In this document: in pieces, positions 23,982 to 34,900 of the stretch
Layout: every line of letters starts with the position of its first letter
Numbering within the stretch: position 1 is the first letter of the stretch
Assembly: GCA_965249555.1 (NCBI GenBank)
Contig: OZ252243.1
Location: forward strand, 256,001-320,000
DNA length: 64,000 bases
Direction of reading: 5' to 3'
Origin: Nitrosopumilus sp.
Lineage (GTDB): Archaea > Thermoproteota > Nitrososphaeria > Nitrososphaerales > Nitrosopumilaceae
Translations under genes and position numbers: made by a program
Notes under the pieces: generated by a model
Databases searched by the model: none
What the model was told of the DNA's origin: nothing
Seen by the model: only the letters and a program-made list of their open reading frames with translations

Positions 23982-24260
23982 TCAATCAAATTTTGTTACA
24001 AAAGTTCCTTTATGAGCACAATTAGGGCATCGTTGTGATTTTGCCCAGGTTTCTACAGTTTCAGAATATGCAATTCGTATTTTATAGGAATAACCATAAT
24101 TTTGACATGAAATGTTTGCGGAATAACTATTCTTATTCCAACTCTCGCACCAGGAACTGAAGTACTTGCAGAAACACCAGGACCTACAGTACCTACAGAA
24201 ACACCAAAAACTAAGGACTTGCTCCACTCTCCATTTGTTTGGAGTCCTAAGAAGGGGTGT

Positions 24261-24282
24261 TTGAGGGGACTTGTCCCCTCAA
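24261..24282. other. GC-rich hairpin upstream of surface protein gene 1
   Basis: TTGAGGGGAC-TT-GTCCCCTCAA perfect inverted repeat. Confidence 0.5.
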
Positions 24283-24341
24283 TTAATGGAACTTGGCTTT
24301 TGATAGTATGCCTTAAGAATGGATATAATTTAGATATTTTA

Positions 24342-26006
24342 TTGAAATATCTGTTAATTGCACTTTTGATTATTGGTTCTGTTACAGTTACAACGGTATA
24401 TGCAGAAAGTGATAAGATACCAGCATGGGTTAAAGCAGTCGCTGGGTGGTGGGCAGAAGATAAAATTACTGATGAAGAATTTATCGAGGCTTTAGAATTT
24501 TTGATTGAATCTAATGTAATAAGCCCAGATAGTTTTAGTATTTTAAAATTAGATGAGCCTATTGCAGAACCAGTTGCAGAACCAGTTGCAGAACCAGTTG
24601 CAGAACCAGTTGCAGAACCAGTTGCAGAACCAGTTGCAGAACCAGTTGCAGAACCAGTTGCAGAACCAGAAATAATTGTTACAACAGATAAACCTAGTTA
24701 TGTTAGAGGAGAAATAATCCTAATTACAGGAGAAGTAAGTCAACTTATAGAAGAATATGTTATTCTTATCCAAGTGATATCATCAAATGGTGATTATGCT
24801 GCCATTAGTCAACATACAGTTGGTGAAGATAAAAAATTCAGCACTAGAGCATATACAGAAGGAGCATTGATGAAAGATTATGGAACATACATAGTTCGTG
24901 TTAATTATGGAGATGATATTTTAACAACAACAACATTTGAATTAAACAAACACCAAAAAACTGAAATTCGTTATGATGAGAGTGGAACTATAGGAGTGGC
25001 ATATGATGAGTTTGGAAATAAAATTCTCTATTATGGAAATGGAAACCCAAAATATGATTATGATGAGAATGAAATTAGAATAGAATATTATGAAAATGGA
25101 AATCCAAAATATGGTTATGGTGATAATGGAAGTTTCACAGAATATTATGAATATTATGAAAATGGAAATGTACTTTCTGAATATGATGAGAATGGAAATA
25201 CAATTACATATTATGAAAATGGAAATGTACTTTCTGAATTTGATGAGAATGGAAATCTAATTTCATATTATGAGAATGGAAATATAAGAAAAAAGATTGA
25301 TGAGTTTGGAAGAGTGTTTAGTTATTATGAAAATGGAAATCCAGAACGAGGAATTGATGAGAATGGAAATAAAATTACATATTATGAGAATGGAAATGTA
25401 GATACTGAATATGATGAGAATGGAAAAAGAGTTAGATATTATGAGAATGGAAATATAGAATCTGAATATGGTAAGAATGGAAATGCAATTACATATTATA
25501 AAAATGGGAATATAGAAGCTGAATATCATGCGAATGGATATGAAAAATTTTTGTATGATAAGAATGGAAATCTACGATTTGAATATTATGAGAATAGAAT
25601 TACAAAATTCGAATTTTATCCAAATGGATATGTAATGCATGAGTATGATGAGAATGGAAATCTAATTTCATATTATGAGAATCCAGAACCAGGAATAATT
25701 GTTACAACAGATAAACCTAGTTATGTTAGAGGAGAAATAATCCTAATTACAGGAGAAGTAAGTCAACTTATAGAAGAAGCACATGCTCTAACTTTCGTAT
25801 TGGTAACACCAAATGAAAATGTTGTTTCCATTGATCAGCTCACAGTTGGTGAAGATAAAAAATTCAGCACTAGTGTATATGTAGGTGTATTGATGGAAGA
25901 TTATGGAACATACATAGTTACTGTTACTTATGGTGTTGGAACAGATGATGCTTATTGGTTTTCAACAACAACGACATTTGAAATTAAACAAACACCAAAA
26001 AACTGA
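24342..26006 (+). CDS. secreted/surface repeat protein 1: thaumarchaeal IPxW..WW domain, PVAE linker, duplicated Ig-like module, YYENGN (MORN-variant-like) repeats
   Basis: TTG start at 24342 by alignment to the paralog at 29587; signal peptide; EIIVTTDKPSYVRGEIILITGEV module occurs twice (second copy GIIVTT). Confidence 0.8.
   Translation: MKYLLIALLIIGSVTVTTVYAESDKIPAWVKAVAGWWAEDKITDEEFIEALEFLIESNVISPDSFSILKLDEPIAEPVAEPVAEPVAEPVAEPVAEPVAEPVAEPVAEPEIIVTTDKPSYVRGEIILITGEVSQLIEEYVILIQVISSNGDYAAISQHTVGEDKKFSTRAYTEGALMKDYGTYIVRVNYGDDILTTTTFELNKHQKTEIRYDESGTIGVAYDEFGNKILYYGNGNPKYDYDENEIRIEYYENGNPKYGYGDNGSFTEYYEYYENGNVLSEYDENGNTITYYENGNVLSEFDENGNLISYYENGNIRKKIDEFGRVFSYYENGNPERGIDENGNKITYYENGNVDTEYDENGKRVRYYENGNIESEYGKNGNAITYYKNGNIEAEYHANGYEKFLYDKNGNLRFEYYENRITKFEFYPNGYVMHEYDENGNLISYYENPEPGIIVTTDKPSYVRGEIILITGEVSQLIEEAHALTFVLVTPNENVVSIDQLTVGEDKKFSTSVYVGVLMEDYGTYIVTVTYGVGTDDAYWFSTTTTFEIKQTPKN
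24558..24665 (+). repeat. 12-bp tandem repeat (PIAE + PVAE x8)
   Basis: ccagttgcagaa units. Confidence 0.95.
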
Positions 26007-26054
26007 AATTAGTTATGATGAGAATGGAACTAAAAGAAATTAATTTAAAATTAT

Positions 26055-26103
26055 AATTTTAGAAAAAAGGTAGGGTGTTTTGATTGAGATTGTTATGATT
26101 GTA
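26055..26103 (+). repeat. ~70-bp post-gene repeat, copy 1, left part (right part 27433-27450); split by IS110
   Basis: aattttagaaaaaaggtagggt..ttgat.gagattgttatgattgTA aligns with the copies at 29286 and 31179. Confidence 0.85.
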
Positions 26104-26179
26104 TCCATGTGAATTGTTTTTATACATTTCCTACTTTTTCGTATCCCAAGGCATAGCTTTCGCTAGAGAAGGTTTTCAA

Positions 26180-26307
26180 TCAAAAGATGACGGACATGTA
26201 TCCATACGAGGCTTTAACCTCAATGCTATCTTCATCCCTTTATTAGGACCTATCCGCAGTTAAAAAACGAGGCTTGTCCCTCAACAATCATAACGCGACT
26301 TGCAGTC
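26180..26307 (-). ncRNA. predicted bridge RNA/seekRNA of the IS110 element
   Basis: Two internal loops, each capped by GAGG-N6-CCUC; guides GUUAUGAUUGU and UUUUUA match the target, AUGGAUA matches the donor end. Confidence 0.8.
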
Positions 26308-27423
26308 CTAACTGTAATTCTGTACAAATTCTCTCCTCTCTTTTAGCATCCAGTAAATCACTCGCAGGATCTTTGATGATGCGGCAATTGCGGCCTTTGA
26401 TGAGCCTCTCTTCTTTTTAATGCGATTGTAAAATTTTGTAATGTCACTGTTCTTGGCATGTATTGTATGGGTATGGACGCATTGGATAAGGACCCATCGT
26501 AGTGTCACGCTTCCTCTTTTGGTTATACAGCCATGGTGTATCGTGTCTGCAGAGTTTCTGACTGATGGCACGACTCCTGCATATGCACATAACTTGTGAG
26601 AGTCATTGAATCTGTCAATATCTGCAATTTCTGATGCAATAACTAGTGATGCGTAATCACCAATTCCTGGCATTGATTTTATTATCATGGCATCAGGACT
26701 GGTCTTTACAGCAGCATACACTCTTGAATTAATCTCTGCAATTTGCAGATTAAGATAGTCTATCTGTCGTACAAATCCATCTATGCGATAGTCACCTAGG
26801 GAGGTGAGTCTTCTGTTGTATGTTACAGTGAACGTGACTCTTGGTATCTTGATTCCCTCCTGTAACAAAATTCCATGAACAGAATTTTTGAGAGAAGTTC
26901 TCCACTGAATGAGTTTTTTTCTGTATCTTACCAGTTGACGATGTTTTACTATCTTTTTGTTTGGAATATGGCATGTTGCAATGTATCCTCCACGCAAAAG
27001 ATCTGCCAGTATCTTGGAATCAATCTTGTCTGTCTTCTTTTTTGATGCAGCTATTGCCTTTGTAAGATACGGGTTTGAAAGTGTAACATTTTTGTATCCT
27101 AATTCATCTGTAAGAAATCTATACGTGCCATACCAGACTGATGATGACTCCATGACAATGTTTGCATGAATCGGTATGTCTGTAAAATGTTTCCTGATTG
27201 ATTCATGAGTGTTCTCAACTTTTATGTTTTGTAATATCTTTCCGTCATCATCCATTGTTGCCACTTGAAGAAATTTCTTGTGTAAGTCAATGCCAACATA
27301 CATGCCCTTGTCTTTTTTTGCCCTAATCTGTTTCTTTGGACTTTTCTTGGAATATGATGGATTACGAATCTTGGAATTAGATTCATTTCCTATGCTATCT
27401 GAATTCCTTCTTTTTGTATTCAC
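26308..27423 (-). CDS. IS110-family DEDD recombinase/transposase (probable start ATG 27303)
   Basis: YVGIDLHK, VMESS, KKTDKIDS, PGIG, AYAGVVPSVRNSA (catalytic Ser region), TKRGS..LR. Confidence 0.95.
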   Translation of the reverse strand: MNTKRRNSDSIGNESNSKIRNPSYSKKSPKKQIRAKKDKGMYVGIDLHKKFLQVATMDDDGKILQNIKVENTHESIRKHFTDIPIHANIVMESSSVWYGTYRFLTDELGYKNVTLSNPYLTKAIAASKKKTDKIDSKILADLLRGGYIATCHIPNKKIVKHRQLVRYRKKLIQWRTSLKNSVHGILLQEGIKIPRVTFTVTYNRRLTSLGDYRIDGFVRQIDYLNLQIAEINSRVYAAVKTSPDAMIIKSMPGIGDYASLVIASEIADIDRFNDSHKLCAYAGVVPSVRNSADTIHHGCITKRGSVTLRWVLIQCVHTHTIHAKNSDITKFYNRIKKKRGSSKAAIAASSKILRVIYWMLKERREFVQNYS

Positions 27424-27646
27424 ATATAGTTAAAAATCATCAATGCCTAGATTCAATTTGTAACATAATTATAGTATGATTTTGAATAGAATTTATTGAG
27501 TTTTCCAGAAGAATCTAAAAAAGAAAAAAACAAAGAGCCTGTAGACAGATTGATAGTTTGTATCTTATCACCAACTATTTTTGGATTTATCTATTCAGAA
27601 AAATTTAACAAAAATCTAAAATTTCTAATGCTATTATCAATTCCTT

Positions 27647-29067
27647 GTATGTATCAACCTTCACGCACAAATCAACACTATTACACAAAAAGATCTAAGA
27701 TCAACTAAATCATCATACAAAACATGTCAGGTTGTGGTCATGAGAAAATCATCATACAGCTGCAAGCAGAGATAAAACAACTAAAACTAATCATAGAAAA
27801 TCTCATAGAATCAAACAAGGAACTGCAAAAAAAGCTGTCATATTATGAGAATGCGCACTCTCCGCCATCAAAGAATTCCCTTGAATGGAGAAAGCAAAAA
27901 AGACAACACAGACAGCCAGGCAAATCAAGACGTGGTGGAATAGCAGGACACGTTGGCAAGACACAGAAATTCAGACCAACTAGCACCAAACACCACAGAT
28001 CAGATGCATGTCCCAAATGCGGTAGTGAAAATATTCATCAAACCAAAACCTGCAAAAGGATAATGGTTGAGATTCCTCCACCAACACCCTACGGTATAAC
28101 TGAGCATGTTTTGAATCAATACATCTGCATGGACTGTTCTGATAATTTTCAAACCACGGGAAACCTTCCACTACATGGATGTTTTGATGGTTCAGTGATA
28201 CGTGAGGTCGTCTCACTGTTCTCAAAGAGATTGACATACGATGCTATCAGAACCACACTCTATGAAAGATATGGATTAGAAATCAGCAATACAACCGTAC
28301 AATCCATTCTTCGCAACGGTAGTGTGATGTTAGAGTCATTTTACAATACAATCCACAGCGAAATCGTGACTGAAAATATTCTCGGAATCGATGAGACAGG
28401 ATTTTCAATTGATGGAAATACTGGATGGATGTGGGTTGCAAGAAGCAAGACTAGTGCACAGTATGCCTTGGAGTACAGCAGAGGTGCCAATGTTCTAAAA
28501 AAGTACTGGAAGAAATTCAAAGGAACCCTAGTGTCTGACGGATATGCTCCGTACAGGACAGTATTTTGTGATAACACAAAGCAGAGATGCACCGCACACC
28601 TGCAGCGCGATGCCAAATATCTGGCAATAAAATCACAGGACAAAAAGGCCAGGATTCTATATGAGAAACTCTCAGGGATGCTAGGTCATGCCAGGGTTTG
28701 GAGTGTAGGTAATCGTCATACAAAACGGCGGGAAACGTACAGGAATGATTTACTAAAACAGCTGGACCGTATCATTGCACGATATTTGAAAGGTGATACG
28801 GAGATGGTTCAGTTTGGCAAGAAGCTAAAGACTGCAAGGAACAGCATGTTTACGTTTGTCATGGATGGCGATGTCCCGTCAACTAACAATGATGCAGAGA
28901 ATTCCATTCGAAAGTGCGTGATGCAGAGGAATGTTCGCGGGCAGATGAAGAGTGATCAGGGCATGAGGATGATCTCAGTCTTTCTCACATGCTTTGAGAC
29001 ATGGAGAATAAGGGAATTGAACATGTTTTCTGAGATGGCAAAATACATCTAAGTGCTTGATTCATAC
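27647..29067 (+). mobile_element. IS66-family insertion sequence (single-ORF type), 1421 bp
   Basis: Imperfect TIRs GTATGTATCAAC / CTTGATTCATAC; 8-bp TSD AATTCCTT at 27639-27646 and 29068-29075. Confidence 0.93.
27724..29052 (+). CDS. IS66-family transposase
   Basis: Coiled coil, HSPPS, CPKCG Zn finger, IDETG, SDGY, QRCTAHLQR, TNNDAENSIR. Confidence 0.95.
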   Translation: MSGCGHEKIIIQLQAEIKQLKLIIENLIESNKELQKKLSYYENAHSPPSKNSLEWRKQKRQHRQPGKSRRGGIAGHVGKTQKFRPTSTKHHRSDACPKCGSENIHQTKTCKRIMVEIPPPTPYGITEHVLNQYICMDCSDNFQTTGNLPLHGCFDGSVIREVVSLFSKRLTYDAIRTTLYERYGLEISNTTVQSILRNGSVMLESFYNTIHSEIVTENILGIDETGFSIDGNTGWMWVARSKTSAQYALEYSRGANVLKKYWKKFKGTLVSDGYAPYRTVFCDNTKQRCTAHLQRDAKYLAIKSQDKKARILYEKLSGMLGHARVWSVGNRHTKRRETYRNDLLKQLDRIIARYLKGDTEMVQFGKKLKTARNSMFTFVMDGDVPSTNNDAENSIRKCVMQRNVRGQMKSDQGMRMISVFLTCFETWRIRELNMFSEMAKYI

Positions 29068-29285
29068 AATTCCTTTTGTTTTTATGTTCTTACTAGTACT
29101 TACATACACTATTGGTGATTTTGAAATACAGGAACCAAGCAAAATATTAGGATTTGACAATAGGATTGTTATTGCATTACTGTTTGTTTTTCCAATTATA
29201 TTCATGTATCGTTGGGCTTCTCAATACAATCTAAAGAATTTTGGATTTAAATCAAAGAGAGAATGGAAGAAAAATAGAGAACTAT

Positions 29286-29356
29286 AATTTTAGAAAAAAG
29301 GTAGGGTTATTTGATAGAGATTGTTATGATCATAAAAATAATCTATGAGTAAATTG
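29286..29356 (+). repeat. ~70-bp post-gene repeat, copy 2
   Basis: aattttagaaaaaaggtagggttatttgatagagattgttatgatcaTAaaaataatctatga. Confidence 0.85.
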
Positions 29357-29493
29357 ATTTAGAATTGTAATTTTGGAATTGTAATTTTAGAAAAGAAGAG
29401 GACCTATTGCAGTAACACCAGGAACCAACACCAGGACTTTAGTTATAATTCTCTAATTGTGTTTTTTTAGTCTTTGATGGATTTTTCGCAGAC

Positions 29494-29515
29494 CCAAATT
29501 TCTAAGGAAATTTGG
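29494..29515. other. hairpin upstream of surface protein gene 2
   Basis: CCAAATTTC-TAAG-GAAATTTGG. Confidence 0.45.
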
Positions 29516-29586
29516 CAGTTAGTGAGAAATTGAATCTTGTCTTTTGATAGTATACCTTAAGAGTGGTAAATTATTGAAATATTTTA

Positions 29587-31167
29587 TTGAAATATCTGTT
29601 AATTGCTCTTTTGATTATTTGTTCTGTAACAGTTACAACGGTATATGCAGAAAGTGATAAGATACCAGCATGGGTTAAAGGGGTCGCTGGGTGGTGGGCA
29701 GAAGATAAAATTACTGATGAAGAATTTATCGAGGCTTTGGAATTTCTGATTGAAACTAATGTGATAAACCCAGATAGTTTTAGTATTTTAAAATTAAATG
29801 AACCAGTTGCAGAACCAGTTGCAGAACCAGTTGCAGAACCAGTTGCAGAACCAGTTGCAGAACCAGTTGCAGAACCAGTTGCAGAACCAGTTGCAGAACC
29901 AGTTGCAGAACCAGTTGCAGAACCAGTTGCAGAACCAGTTGCAGAACCAGTTGCAGAACCTATTGCAGGAACAAACAATCAATCAATAAGAGAATATAAT
30001 GAGAATGGAAATATTGTTTGTAGTTATTATTATGATTATGGAAAGAAATTTGAAATTGAATCTAATGTGAATTTTTCTAAAGAATATGATGAGTATGGAG
30101 ATGTAAAATATGAAGGTGATAGTAATATTACTGATAAAATACTTTCTGGTTATAATGATGAAATCAAAAAATTTGAATATGTTATTTGTACTATGTATGA
30201 GAAGAATGGAGATCCTGCAATAAGATATTATTCTAACGGAGATCCATTCTTAGAACCTTGGGAAGGTAGAACTGAATTTTATGATAATGGTAATATACAA
30301 TATGAGTTATTTACAGCTAGTGGTTATTTTTCTAAAGAATATCATGAGAATGGAAATGTAGAATTTGATTATACTTCACGAGGATATCCAATCAATGAAT
30401 ATCATGAGAATGGAAATGTAAAAACTGAATATTATAGGAATGGAAATATAGAATTTGAATATGATGAGAATGGATATGCAATATTTTCATATTTTAGTAA
30501 TGGAAATGTGTGGCAAGAATTTGATGAGAATGGAAATGTAAGAACTTACTATGAGAATGGAAATGTAGAACGTGAATTTTATGAGAATGGAAATGTAAAA
30601 ACTGAACATTATGAGAATGGAAATGTAGAATTTGAATATGATGAGAATGGAGATGCATATACTTATGTTCATTATTCTTTGAATGGATCTATTATTTCTG
30701 AAATTGATGAGAATGGAAATAGAATTTATTATCATGCAAATGGAAATGTGAGGGAAGAATTTGATGAGAATAGAGATCTACGGCTTTACTATTATGAGAA
30801 TGGAAATCCTGAATCTACTTATGATGAGAATGGAAATAATAGAATTAAATATTATTCAAATGGAAATGTAAAAACTGAACATGATGAGTATGGAGGAACA
30901 AGAGTTGATTATTATGAGAATGGAGATGTAGAATATGTTTTTTATGGTAATGGATATTACATTCATTACTATTCAGGGGGATATGTAGAAATGCAGAATT
31001 TAAATGGGCATAATCTAAACCTAGGAATTGATGAAAATGGAAATCCAATTTATCATGAGAATGGAAATCTAAAATTTGAATTTGATGAGAATAGAAATAT
31101 AACTTTTTATGATGAAAATGGAAATATAGAGTTAGAATTTGATGAGACTGGAAATAAAATAAATTAA
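29587..31167 (+). CDS. secreted/surface repeat protein 2 (paralog of 24342-26006)
   Basis: Near-identical N-terminal ~70 aa, PVAE x13, YYENGN/YDENGN repeats. Confidence 0.85.
   Translation: MKYLLIALLIICSVTVTTVYAESDKIPAWVKGVAGWWAEDKITDEEFIEALEFLIETNVINPDSFSILKLNEPVAEPVAEPVAEPVAEPVAEPVAEPVAEPVAEPVAEPVAEPVAEPVAEPVAEPIAGTNNQSIREYNENGNIVCSYYYDYGKKFEIESNVNFSKEYDEYGDVKYEGDSNITDKILSGYNDEIKKFEYVICTMYEKNGDPAIRYYSNGDPFLEPWEGRTEFYDNGNIQYELFTASGYFSKEYHENGNVEFDYTSRGYPINEYHENGNVKTEYYRNGNIEFEYDENGYAIFSYFSNGNVWQEFDENGNVRTYYENGNVEREFYENGNVKTEHYENGNVEFEYDENGDAYTYVHYSLNGSIISEIDENGNRIYYHANGNVREEFDENRDLRLYYYENGNPESTYDENGNNRIKYYSNGNVKTEHDEYGGTRVDYYENGDVEYVFYGNGYYIHYYSGGYVEMQNLNGHNLNLGIDENGNPIYHENGNLKFEFDENRNITFYDENGNIELEFDETGNKIN
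29803..29958 (+). repeat. 12-bp tandem repeat (PVAE x13)
   Basis: Perfect ccagttgcagaa units. Confidence 0.95.
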
Positions 31168-31178
31168 TTTAGAATTGA

Positions 31179-31249
31179 AATTTTAGAAAAAAGGTATGGT
31201 TATTTGATAGAGATTGTTATGATTGTAAAAATCATCTATGACTAAAATT
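31179..31249 (+). repeat. ~70-bp post-gene repeat, copy 3 (empty IS110 target)
   Basis: AATTTTAG...CTAAAATT terminal IR; inner ATGATT-gtaaa-AATCAT; TA core at 31226-31227. Confidence 0.85.
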
Positions 31250-31418
31250 ACAATTAGATCTAAAATTATTTTGTAGAATTTGAATTGTCTATTTGAAATT
31301 CATCTAAGTAATCATCAATATGATTAATGCACTTGTGGTTAGATAGTGCATAATCAGAATATAGAATCAATCCACATCTTACGCATTTTTGGGCGTCTTC
31401 AAAATGAATCATTAAGTC

Positions 31419-31970
31419 TTACCAATTACTCCAATTTCGAAAATCTAGATTTGGAAATTTCCTTCCAAGAATTATCCCATAATCGAAAAATTGTTTTTGC
31501 ATTGCTTTGAGATTAACTATTTCAGCTTGTTTTTTTTCTCTAAATTGTTTTGCTTGTTGTCCTAATTCATCTATCTCATGTTGGAGATTTTTAATCTTGC
31601 ATACTCTTTCTTCAAATACTTCATTAACTATTCTAGGCAAATTTTCTTTGAGATAATTTGAATCATAACCTGTAGATGATTCTTTTTTTTCAGTTGAATC
31701 ATTTGGTCGATTAAGCCATGCTCTTAAGTAATTTTCTGACTTTTTAGTTGGTTTGTTTGGTTGATTCCACCATTTTTCTAGTGGGGTTCTAGTATCATTT
31801 GGATCATCCTCAGTAAGTGTTGCAGCAGTTTTAAGAATTTCAGGCATATTATTTGCTGCATATTTGATAACTTTGCTCATTGTAGTGTCATTTTCTTTAC
31901 AATTTTTCTCAAATTGGTTTTTTTCATCATTACTGACATTAGCTGAAATTGTAGGCATAATATTTGGCAT
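31419..31970 (-). CDS. hypothetical protein with N-terminal ribbon-helix-helix-like segment
   Basis: TISANVSNDEKNQFEKNCKENDTTMSKVIK; C-terminal coiled coil. Confidence 0.55.
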   Translation of the reverse strand: MPNIMPTISANVSNDEKNQFEKNCKENDTTMSKVIKYAANNMPEILKTAATLTEDDPNDTRTPLEKWWNQPNKPTKKSENYLRAWLNRPNDSTEKKESSTGYDSNYLKENLPRIVNEVFEERVCKIKNLQHEIDELGQQAKQFREKKQAEIVNLKAMQKQFFDYGIILGRKFPNLDFRNWSNW

Positions 31971-31996
31971 AATGCTTGTGTTTATGTTTTCTAGAA

Positions 31997-34900
31997 TTAT
32001 TCAAATTTGTCATAAGGCTCAATTGGTTCTCTAGTAGTTTCATTATCTTTGAGCCACTCCAGAGTCTTTACAAAAGAATCAGCTAATTCAATAGTTGTCA
32101 AAACAGGAATTCCTAGTTCTAAAGATTTTCGCCTAATTTGAAATTCATCATCAAGCATTCCAACATATTTTTCTAATGTAGTAGTACTTGGAATGTTTAT
32201 GATGAAATCAATCTTTCGCTCATATAGAAGATCAGAAATATTTGGTTTTCGTTCAGGTTCTGAAATTTTATGAACTATTTCTATTTGACCTATTTTTTCT
32301 TCAAAGAATTCTGCAGTATGTTCAGTTGCCAAAATTTTGAATCCAAGATGTTTGAGTTTTGCAATAGCTGCAACAAGTTTTTGTTTATTTTGTTCACCGC
32401 CAACAGTTACAAGGGCAGTTCCTTTATCAGGCAGATGATAACCAACTGAAATCAAACCTTTTGATAGTGCATCATGGAAACTATTTCCAAAACAGGCAGC
32501 CTCGCCAGTGGATTGCATCTCAACTCCCAATGTGATATCTGCACCTTGTAGTTGCATAAAGGAGAATTGCGGAACTTTGATTCCATAGTTGTGAATCTTT
32601 TGCCACTTATTTTCAGGTATTTTAGGTAGAGGTTTATCCAAAATAGCCTTTGATGCAAGAGAAATCAGGTTCATTTTAACAAGTTTTGAGACAAAGGGCA
32701 TGGAACGTGATGCTCTAATGTTTAGTTCAATTACATAGACATGATCATCATGAACCAAATATTGGAGGTTAAACGGACCTTTGACATTAAAGGTTAGGGC
32801 AATCTTTTTTGTATATTCATTAATGGTCTCAATGATTTTGTTACTTAATCTCCATGGTGGGATACACATCATAGCATCGCCTGAATGAACCCCGGCACTA
32901 TCAATGTGCTCAACAATTGCACCAATGATTACTTGTTTTCCATTACTGATTCCATCAACATCTACTTCAAGGGAGTTTAACATGAATTTTGAAATTACAA
33001 CCGGATGATCAGGTGAAATATCAGCTGCTGCCTTGACATATGTCTTTAGTTCTGTTTGAGACCAAACAACTTTCATGGCGGCACCAGAAAGAACGTAAGA
33101 CGGCCTTACAATTACTGGAAATTCAACTTCTTGTGCAAAGGTTTTAGCTTCACTAAGATTTGAGAATGCTTGCCAACGTGGTTGTTGTATGTGAAGTTTA
33201 TCAAGCTCTGCACTGAACTTTGAACGATTTTCTGCCCTATCAACATCATATGCACTAGTTCCCAAAATATTTACACCGTGTTTAGCAAGGCCAGGAGTTA
33301 AGTTATTTGCAGTCTGTCCTCCAACACAAGTAACTATTCCTTTAGGATTTTCAAATTCAGTGATATCTAAAATTCTTTCTTGAGTTAATTCTTCAAAGTA
33401 TAATCTTGTGCAAATATCATAATCAGTAGATACTGTTTCTGGATTACAGTTCACTACAGAGATATTTTTTTCACCATTTTCTTGTAAACCCCAAACCATA
33501 TTGACAGTGCCCCAATCAAATTCTACGCTACTTCCAATTCTATACGGTCCAGCTCCCAATACAACAATTCCTTTTTCATCAGATGGAATTTCAATGTCAT
33601 GAGAATGGCCACCATATGTGAGATACAGATAGTTTGTGACTGCAGGCCATTCTGCTGCAAGCGTGTCAATCTGCTTTACAGAGGGCAAAACACCCAATTT
33701 CTTGCGTAAATCACGTACTTCATCAGGTGTTTTGCCTTTAACACGAGCGATTTGCTTATCTGAAAAACCCATTTTTTTGGCTTCCCAAAGGAGGGGTTCT
33801 CCTAGTTCAGAATCTTTTAATTTTGATTCAATATTTACAATATTTTTTATCTTTTCAATAAACCAAGGATCAATTGTAGAGAGTTTGTAAATTCGCTCAA
33901 CTGAAATTCCCATCTTTAATGCAATTGCTACATTGTACAAAATATGATCATCATGATAAGTGAGTTTGTTCTCAATTTCTTCTTCGGTGTAGGCTTTCCC
34001 ATCAACACGATTAAGAACTAAACCATCGTTTCCAATGTCTAACATTCGAATTGATTTTTGAAGTGACTCCTCAAAAGTTCTACCTACTGCCATTACTTCT
34101 CCTACTGATTTCATTGCGGGTCCAAGTTCTCGATTTACAAGTTCAAACTTTTCAAAGTCCCACCGAGGATGTTTACATACAATATAATCAAGTGATGGTT
34201 CAAAACAAGCAGTGGTACTTTTTGTAATTCTATTTACTAGTTCGGATAAATTATAACCCAATCCAATTTTTGCAGACATATATGCTAGTGGATATCCTGT
34301 TGCTTTGCTTGCAAGAGCAGAAGAACGTGAAAGTCTTGGATTTATTTCAATTGCAGCATACCTGTCAGAGTTTGGTTCAAGTGCATATTGAATATTGCAT
34401 TCACCAACAATTCCCACATGTTTGGTTGCACGCAATGCTGCAGAACGTAACATGTGGTATTCATGATTATCAATTGTTTGTGATGGAGCAACTACGATAT
34501 TATCACCAGTGTGAGCTTTCATGGAAAGAACATTTTCCATGTTACAAACAATGATATTATTTCCACCATAATCCTGCATTACTTCATACTCGATTTGTTT
34601 CCAGTGTCCAATGTATTCTTCAATTAGGACTTGGCCAACAATACTTGCTCTGATACCTCGCTCAACAATCTCATGAAGTTCAATTTCATTATAGGCAACA
34701 CCGCCACCTCGTCCGCCCAGAGTATATGCAACACGAACTATTACAGGGTAGGATAATTCTTCAGCCGCTTTTTTAGCATCCTCAAAGTTAGTCACAGTTT
34801 TGCTTCTCAAAACAGGGACGCCTGATTCATTCATTGAATCCTTGAAGAGTTGCCTATCCTCAGTTTTTTGAATTCCTTGAACTGAGGTTCCAAGTACGCT

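Follow-up and report, generated by a model that had tools for sequence, protein, structure and literature searches.

The recombinases of the IS110 family of insertion sequences (IS) work together with a bispecific RNA, termed bridge RNA or seekRNA, which is encoded by the element itself. The published accounts of IS621 (PMC11208160, PMC11208158, PDB 8wt6) describe an RNA with a pair of pseudo-symmetric internal loops, a target loop and a donor loop, and each loop contains one strand pairing with the top strand and one pairing with the bottom strand around a core of two nucleotides (nt). The IS621 RNA is located in the left end, upstream of the gene, and its core is CT. The IS1111 group is reported to show the reverse strand order of IS110, with the RNA segment matching the top strand lying 5′ of the segment matching the bottom strand (PMC11187229, PMC11208160). 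The IS1111 seekRNA elements ISEc11, ISKpn4, ISPa11, and ISPst6 are described as carrying the RNA downstream of the DEDD transposase gene, and their subterminal inverted repeats (IRs), usually 11–13 bp long, are flanked by extensions measuring 7 (or 6) nt at the left end and 3 nt at the right end (PMC11187229); the IR range given by Durrant et al. 2024 (PMC11208160) is 7–17 bp. Bridge/seek RNA recombinases are under development as programmable genome-rearrangement tools, and the systems characterized in the literature cited here are bacterial. Here we describe a locus in a 64,000-nt stretch of a Nitrosopumilus sp. genome (contig OZ252243.1, positions 256,001–320,000; hereafter the window, to which coordinates refer unless given as genome positions). 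The segment 26102–27432, on the minus strand, is very probably an intact IS110-family element of the IS1111 type, which encodes a DEDD/Ser recombinase and a bridge/seek RNA whose loops match the target and the element's own ends, and which would excise as a circle, undergo RNA-guided exchange at TA, and be expressed from the circle as a leaderless mRNA. The mechanism is known from bacteria, and the element is a new and unusually legible archaeal example that introduces no new principle.

Read on the minus strand from 27432 to 26102, the element is composed of TA-ACTAT-ATGTGAAT, a 371-codon frame, a 206-nt non-coding region, and ATTCACAT-GGA-TA. It comprises 1329 nt plus the second TA, with one copy of the TA core at each junction (27432–27431 on the left and 26103–26102 on the right), and the genome contains nine full-length copies with the same ends. 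The left end (27418–27430) starts with the 5-nt extension ACTAT (27430–27426), followed by the IR ATGTGAAT (27425–27418), which harbors a GTG codon at 27423–27421. The right end (26102–26114) is formed by the IR ATTCACAT (26114–26107), the 3-nt extension GGA, and the TA core. The 8-bp subterminal IRs are thereby separated from the left core by 5 nt and from the right core by 3 nt, exactly as a preliminary description of this DNA had read them.

The target is split into two halves, GTTATGATTG (26092–26101, plus strand) adjoining the right end and AAAATCAT (27433–27440, plus strand) adjoining the left end, both defined by reading the sequence and by comparison with an empty site. Rebuilding the 20-nt target from the two flanks gives a sequence with a chance expectation of 0.04 matches, and it is found with no mismatch at 31216–31235 (plus strand) in a paralogous intergenic repeat (repeat copy 3). 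Because this empty paralogous site joins both flanks via a single TA, the ends of the element are fixed to the nucleotide and the core is the 2-nt TA, the sole dinucleotide common to both junctions and the empty site. Between the occupied and the empty site, only TA is repeated and no other duplication is present, in line with the precise insertion of the IS110 family. Genome-wide, the rebuilt 20-mer has three perfect copies, including that at 31216–31235, and five copies with three mismatches. Repeat copy 2 (29323–29342, plus strand) is a degenerate target with three mismatches, two of which adjoin the core. The TA core, the perfect empty target, and the two core-adjoining mismatches had all been pointed out earlier, and each agrees with the present comparison. 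The target repeat is ~25 nt long and weakly palindromic; its hairpin is weak (−3.8 kcal/mol), and 15 of 200 shuffles fold equally well. Copies 1 and 3 of the repeat are located just downstream of the genes at 24219–26006 and 29587–31167, respectively, copy 2 lies upstream of the latter gene, and two further perfect target copies are found elsewhere, near genome positions 582138 and 1459762.

The recombinase gene spans 26308–27423 on the minus strand and ends with a TAG stop codon at 26310–26308. The protein contains the Pfam domains PF01548 (DEDD_Tnp_IS110, RuvC-like; 1.3e-23) and PF02371 (Transposase_20; 6.2e-20), and it scores 219.4 bits with the NCBIfam model NF033542 ('IS110 family RNA-guided transposase'), for which the cut-off is 140. 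Its only relatives with solved structures are the transposases of IS621 (E 1.9e-11, a distant similarity) and ISCro4 (E 1.1e-10). In the phmmer alignment with chain 8wt6_A, D6, the Glu of 'vmEss', both Asp of 'kktDkiDs', and S251 (numbering of a 331-residue form starting at ATG 27303) face D11, E60, D102, D105, and S241 of IS621, so the DEDD and Ser catalytic residues align, and the position of IS621 G242 is occupied by Ala. These features support the assignment of the predicted protein as an IS110-family RNA-guided transposase of the DEDD/Ser recombinase type. Together with the strand order and the fold covariation reported below, they also uphold the bispecific-RNA reading of the preliminary description.

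The conserved core of the recombinase starts at ATG 27303 and has 331 amino acids (aa); the earlier estimate was of a compact enzyme of ~330 aa. That length would be ordinary rather than compact, as the IS621 chain in the PDB has 328 residues, and the protein is probably larger, with 371 aa starting from the in-frame GTG. Counted from the left core, the conserved YVGID motif is spaced by a multiple of three in 26 of 27 distinct left ends, and in the same 26 the frame from GTG (element nt 10–12, inside the left IR) is open to the YVGID core; the single remaining left end belongs to a copy flagged with a stop codon. Moreover, at least five relatives have no Met ahead of the YVGID core when their translations are read by eye. 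The open frame, the spacing in multiples of three, and the relatives lacking such a Met together make the 371-aa size likely. The N-terminal extension thus predicted, of ~40 aa, is basic and conserved, and carries S-D-(S/G) and N-K-Q-I motifs. The second motif corresponds to AAGAAACAGATTAGG at 27322–27336 in the left-end coding extension, which is kept as AAACAAACAGATTA (peptide N-K-Q-I) in most relatives, down to ~50% protein identity.

The non-coding region, which measures 206 nt from the stop codon to the right core, contains the predicted bridge/seek RNA gene of 137 nt (26179–26315, minus strand). An outer stem encloses stem-loop 1, which forms the target loop, and is followed by stem-loop 2, which forms the donor loop. 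We built a covariance model (R1; 137 positions, 24 pairs), which matches the window copy with 112.6 bits (E 8e-21), and aligned 23 relatives whose proteins are 45–100% identical to the window recombinase. The consensus fold consists of five helices, namely the outer stem, which includes the stop codon, and the basal and apical stems of stem-loops 1 and 2. Paired cells amount to 95.8% in this fold, compared with 35–45% when the 3′ partners are slid by 1–3 columns. Compensatory changes occur in 14 of the 24 pairs, a number reached by none of 500 shuffles. Both GAGG...CCUC hairpins are present in the predicted RNA, and the covariation sustains the two symmetric loops proposed previously. R1 matches 23 copies in this genome and is found in 25 of 151 sampled genomes of the class. 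An Rfam scan of 25000–33000 with E up to 1 gave no family match to the guide RNA.

Each loop contributes two strands, all encoded on the minus strand. The target-loop 5′ strand GUUAUGAUUGU (26284–26294), which is hypervariable among copies, contains 10 consecutive nt that recur in the reverse complement of its right flank. The target-loop 3′ strand UUUUU-UA(core)-AC (26259–26267) has the same sense as the left flank and core, with four of five flank positions matching, and the AC after the core equals the first two nt of the left end. In the donor loop, the 5′ strand AAGAUAGCAU (26223–26232) contains AUAGC, the reverse complement of left-end nt 3–7 in the TAGCTAT left-end variant, and is invariant in 20 copies, and the 3′ strand UAUGGA-UA(core)-CA (26197–26206) has the same sense as the right end and core. 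The three strings from which the loops were originally recognized, GUUAUGAUUGU at 26294–26284, UUUUUA at 26266–26261, and AUGGAUA at 26205–26199, are all found at these minus-strand positions. The element thus encodes a predicted structured RNA with target-matching and donor-matching loops.

Guide strands and flanks were scored in 57 records from this genome and ~20 others. Among the 50 loci L021–L070, 12 were lost by the parser before the guide–flank and donor-strand counts and were scored neither way, because of a missing anchor (L033, L040, L044, L047, L049, L050, and L070) or a missing hairpin (L030, L035, L039, L042, and L043); several of them show the same architecture by eye. For the 31 distinct target-loop 5′ strands, each represented by its first record, the longest stretch in common with the reverse complement of their own right flank plus core has a mean length of 5.90 nt, compared with 3.65 nt for other flanks (0 of 10,000 shuffles). 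The 25 distinct 3′ strands, in a fixed register beside the core, equal their own left flank at 3.40 of 5 positions, compared with 1.28 for other left flanks (again 0 of 10,000 shuffles). The loop–flank matches exceed chance, in agreement with the earlier reading of the loops. A fixed core register was rejected for the 5′ strand, in which the core position varies between lineages. As to strand order, the 5′ strand corresponds to the right flank in reverse complement, and the 3′ strand shares the sense of the left flank.

The variability of the RNA is concentrated in the target loop. Among 20 genome copies, the mean pairwise difference is 0.308 in the target-loop strands (17 columns), 0.054 in the other 195 non-coding columns, and 0.0 in both donor-loop strands. 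In addition, guide and flank change jointly between close relatives, for example between L060 and L061 and between L032 and L068. In this genome alone, the 22 RNA copies comprise 10 distinct natural guide variants built on one scaffold, and for 12 of 21 right flanks the best match is their own guide. Sequence comparison gives strong support to the view that the target loop would be the reprogrammable part of the RNA, diversified between copies and between genomes, and equally strong support to the tendency of each copy to sit in the sequence that its own loop appears to spell.

The donor loop follows the ends of the element in the same manner. Across relatives, its 3′ strand tracks the right end of each element through the forms ATGGATA, ATAGATA, ATGGGTA, and ATGGATT, and the center of its 5′ strand, AUAGC, AUAGU, or AUGGU, tracks left-end nt 3–7, which read GCTAT, ACTAT, or ACCAT. 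In one related genome (L023 and L055–L058), TT or a lone T stands at the right junction in place of the TA that the donor loop predicts. A related genome represented by L029 and L067 has a second partial copy directly after the right end, ~110–250 nt downstream of the RNA, which starts at a TA inside the DNA encoding the target-loop or donor-loop 3′ strand; guide-coding DNA itself may here act as a pseudo-site. In each 3′ strand, the position of the dinucleotide behind the core resembles that of the handshake guides described for IS621 (PMC11208160, PMC11208158). In 23 of 28 relatives, the dinucleotide behind the stem-loop 1 core is identical to the one with which the left end opens, although both dinucleotides are nearly invariant; the dinucleotide behind the stem-loop 2 core is identical to the start of the right flank in only 7 of 29. 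As these positions are mostly invariant, they provide only a hint of a handshake.

By analogy with IS621, ISEc11, and ISKpn4, the element would excise as a circle joining right end, TA, and left end, and a tetramer of the RNA-bound recombinase would pair the circle junction with a matching target and exchange strands at TA. The right end further contains the TATA-like box TATAAAAA (26117–26124, minus strand), which faces outward and starts 21 nt before the right core. Of 21 distinct right ends, 18 contain a TATA-like octamer, and in 16 it starts exactly 21 nt before the core. In the joined right end–TA–left end, the box would be placed at −30 to −23 relative to the G of the GTG codon. This is the usual position of the archaeal TATA box relative to the start site, and leaderless mRNAs are common in archaea. 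From the conserved spacing of the TATA-like box and GTG we infer a circle-specific leaderless transcript: the B recognition element (BRE) and TATA box, wholly in the right end, would lie in the circle 30 nt upstream of the GTG in the left IR, and the circle would yield a leaderless mRNA that encodes the 371-aa recombinase and includes the guide RNA in its 3′ portion.

The left end also contains AGATAGCAT (27392–27400, minus strand), a same-sense copy of the donor-loop 5′ strand, which encodes the S-D-S of the N-terminal extension. AGATAGCAT covaries with the donor-loop 5′ strand, with a longest shared run averaging 6.8 for cognate and 4.95 for non-cognate pairs (0 of 5000 shuffles), and both are partly complementary to element nt 1–9. 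We tentatively propose, at slightly less than even odds, a junction-promoter switch rebuilt in an archaeal manner, in which only the circle would place the right-end BRE/TATA before the GTG of the left IR and so give the leaderless recombinase mRNA with its guide RNA. The TATA box of an integrated copy would fire outward into host DNA, and AGATAGCAT could fold back on read-through transcripts and thereby silence integrated copies. In ISEc11, promoter motifs are reported to form by the joining of the two ends (Siddiquee et al. 2024, PMC11187229), whereas the TATA-type box predicted here lies wholly in the right end.

The comparison with described systems favors the IS1111 group. As in the published IS1111 seekRNA elements (PMC11187229), the RNA (26179–26315) lies downstream of the DEDD transposase gene, the IR extensions are asymmetric, with TAACTAT (7 nt including the core) on the left and GGA on the right, the RNA segments complementary to the top and the bottom strand follow each other in this order from 5′ to 3′ and overlap at the insertion point, and natural retargeting occurs through changes of the RNA. 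The left-end region of the present element is coding. Unlike those elements as described, the present one has an archaeal host, an 8-bp IR, a TA core, and an AT-rich target, all known from sequence alone, as well as the ~40-aa basic N-terminal extension starting inside the IR. With IS621 it shares the two pseudo-symmetric loops for target and donor and the arrangement of pairing strands around a 2-nt core, whereas the RNA position, the strand order, and the core sequence differ from the published IS621 account. The closest named relatives found are the ISHvo9-family IS110-like elements of haloarchaea (Haloferax volcanii pHV4, NC_013966.1), with 31–37% identity over 84–100% of the protein. No similar two-loop RNA was seen in the downstream non-coding region of ISHvo9, which was inspected by eye only. 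The element could accordingly belong to a separate archaeal IS110 branch rather than to IS1111 proper, its 3′ RNA position being convergent or ancestral. The low identity to these haloarchaeal relatives and an IR shorter than the usual 11–13 bp of Siddiquee et al. speak for such a branch, but the downstream RNA, the 7-nt and 3-nt extensions, and the strand order all fit IS1111 as published (PMC11187229), and 8 bp falls within the 7–17 bp of Durrant et al. (PMC11208160). We therefore consider a separate branch unlikely.

Several observations weigh against the reading as an RNA-guided IS1111-type element. The single-sequence fold energy of the RNA is ordinary (z −0.89). Transcription of the RNA is predicted only, and no sequencing run recorded as RNA covers the region. 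The core position in the 5′ strand shifts by up to ~3 nt between lineages, for which flexible linkers are only a suggestion, and several of the copies in this genome match their left flanks only weakly. Nine of the 21 right flanks are matched better by the guide of another copy, two of them strongly (from 3 to 8 nt and from 5 to 10 nt); this fits action in trans, later drift, or half-site recombination, the last of which is reported for IS621 in a preprint (10.64898/2026.08.31.748434). The promoter and leaderless step relies on spacing and on the usual geometry of archaeal promoters. Some of these points would suit a recombinase that picks its target through the protein alone, with the hairpins acting as a terminator or 3′ untranslated region and the likeness of loop and flank arising by chance or as a by-product of an AT-rich palindrome; the weak palindrome of the target, the unremarkable fold energy, and the predicted status of the RNA are compatible with it. 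The guide–flank match on either side, however, was reached by none of the 10,000 shuffles, only the two target-loop strands are hypervariable, and guide and flank change jointly in close relatives. The shuffle tests and the restriction of hypervariability to the loop effectively refute a protein-only choice of target, which we regard as highly improbable.

A different question is whether any copy still moves. The family may be a fossil in this genome, having inserted under RNA guidance in the past, and this reading concerns activity and is compatible with the IS1111-type assignment. The copies are old, with a highest pairwise identity of 96.6% among the nine full-length ones, of which six have broken frames; many copies are truncated, and the three perfect targets remain unoccupied. 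On the other hand, the window copy and two others keep a 373-codon frame (stop to stop), both ends, and an intact RNA, and the guide of the window copy matches its own flanks almost perfectly. The chance that the family is no longer mobile appears substantial, falling just below one half. Contigs of four sequencing runs were also inspected, and some of those in X1, X3, and X4 span one of the two junctions, which is then occupied. Neither the empty site nor the circle joint of right end and left end was found among the contigs of the four runs, although contigs cannot show absence. A contig joint 27430→27652 and loose ends at 26099 and 27432 correspond to other genome copies or to repeat copy 2.

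A blastn search with the element gave 41 matches in the genome, including the nine full-length copies. Most copies end with ...CACATGGA-TA-CATAC, and most guides in the genome spell GGTTGA-TA-CATAC(n), a sequence that forms the terminal-repeat tip of a resident IS66-family element. The copy at genome positions 709347–710679 sits exactly in such a tip; all five tested 3′-strand positions match its flank, and a run of 7 nt is common to its 5′ strand and its flank. Several other copies have IS66 sequence on the left, as read by eye from the flank list. Genome-wide, 47 IS66 repeat-like ends are present, of which one is interrupted at the tip site and ~8 more, counted by eye, carry sequence of this element at the inner TA. 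IS4321 and IS5075 are IS1111 members that reportedly target the terminal repeats of the Tn21 family; the guides here likewise spell the tip of a terminal repeat, but that of an IS66-family element. A copy of such an element also neighbors the window copy, at 27647–29052, starting 215 nt from the left end and encoding a transposase at 27724–29052 (DDE_Tnp_IS66, 3.5e-41). Most guides of the family in this genome spell its repeat tip, GTATG-TA-TCAACC.

Two groups of copies deviate from the common arrangement. Copies of the TAGCTAT left-end sub-family start at genome positions 2210592, 2071120, 93836, 1239168, 2194036, 1854081, and 1247675 (L006, L007, L014, and L015), and they are always preceded by the first 29 bp of the IS66 terminal repeat, which is partly degenerate at 2071120. 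CATAC follows the right end wherever a right end is present. A 36-bp 'empty' form of this arrangement is found at genome position 2069999; the 29-bp IS66 left flanks are not readily explained by simple insertion. In the second group, an unrelated shared segment of 77 nt is joined to the last 514 nt of the element (L018:1424–2014 and genome positions 2219668, 2075035, 1839073, 56609, and 1558345). The six copies are joined at the same internal position, and the 514 nt cover the recombinase C-terminus, the guide RNA, and the right end. A seventh copy is cut at the same internal point without the 77-nt segment. The 77-nt plus 514-nt units may be non-autonomous, carrying only the RNA and one end.

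The genome encodes an archaeal AmoA (E 1.5e-117; matches in 0 of 14 control genomes) and an archaeal small-subunit (SSU) rRNA, which identify the host as an ammonia-oxidizing archaeon, and the earlier label 'thaumarchaeal' holds in view of the AmoA. Of 401 sampled genomes of the class, 78 encode homologous recombinases, a tally that takes in the genome of the window and one unpublished genome (G282). No paper on an RNA or a junction promoter of this kind in these archaea emerged from literature searches, which did not extend to the supplementary tables of Durrant et al. and Siddiquee et al. The novelty claimed in the preliminary description was nevertheless overstated: a catalog of archaeal IS110 recombinases, with 662 entries, is already reported (10.1101/2024.06.21.599552), the enzyme is of ordinary size, and expression and activity are predicted only. 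The clade is useful as a natural archaeal system because the guide, its target, an empty target, and the donor ends are all readable from sequence, with a TA core, AT-rich targets, and a likely archaeal solution to circle-specific expression. The guide variants on one scaffold within one genome amount to a small natural reprogramming experiment. The element also explains part of the IS landscape of ammonia-oxidizing archaea, in which one element homes into the tips of another.

Beside the element and its IS66-family neighbor, the window contains the two genes whose intergenic surroundings carry the target repeat. Inside a coding repeat, segment 30150–30222 gave a weak Rfam match to a Plasmodium C/D snoRNA (27 bits, E 0.66), most likely by chance. 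The two genes (24219–26006 and 29587–31167) are paralogous, and their proteins contain (PVAE)n and YYENGN-type repeats.

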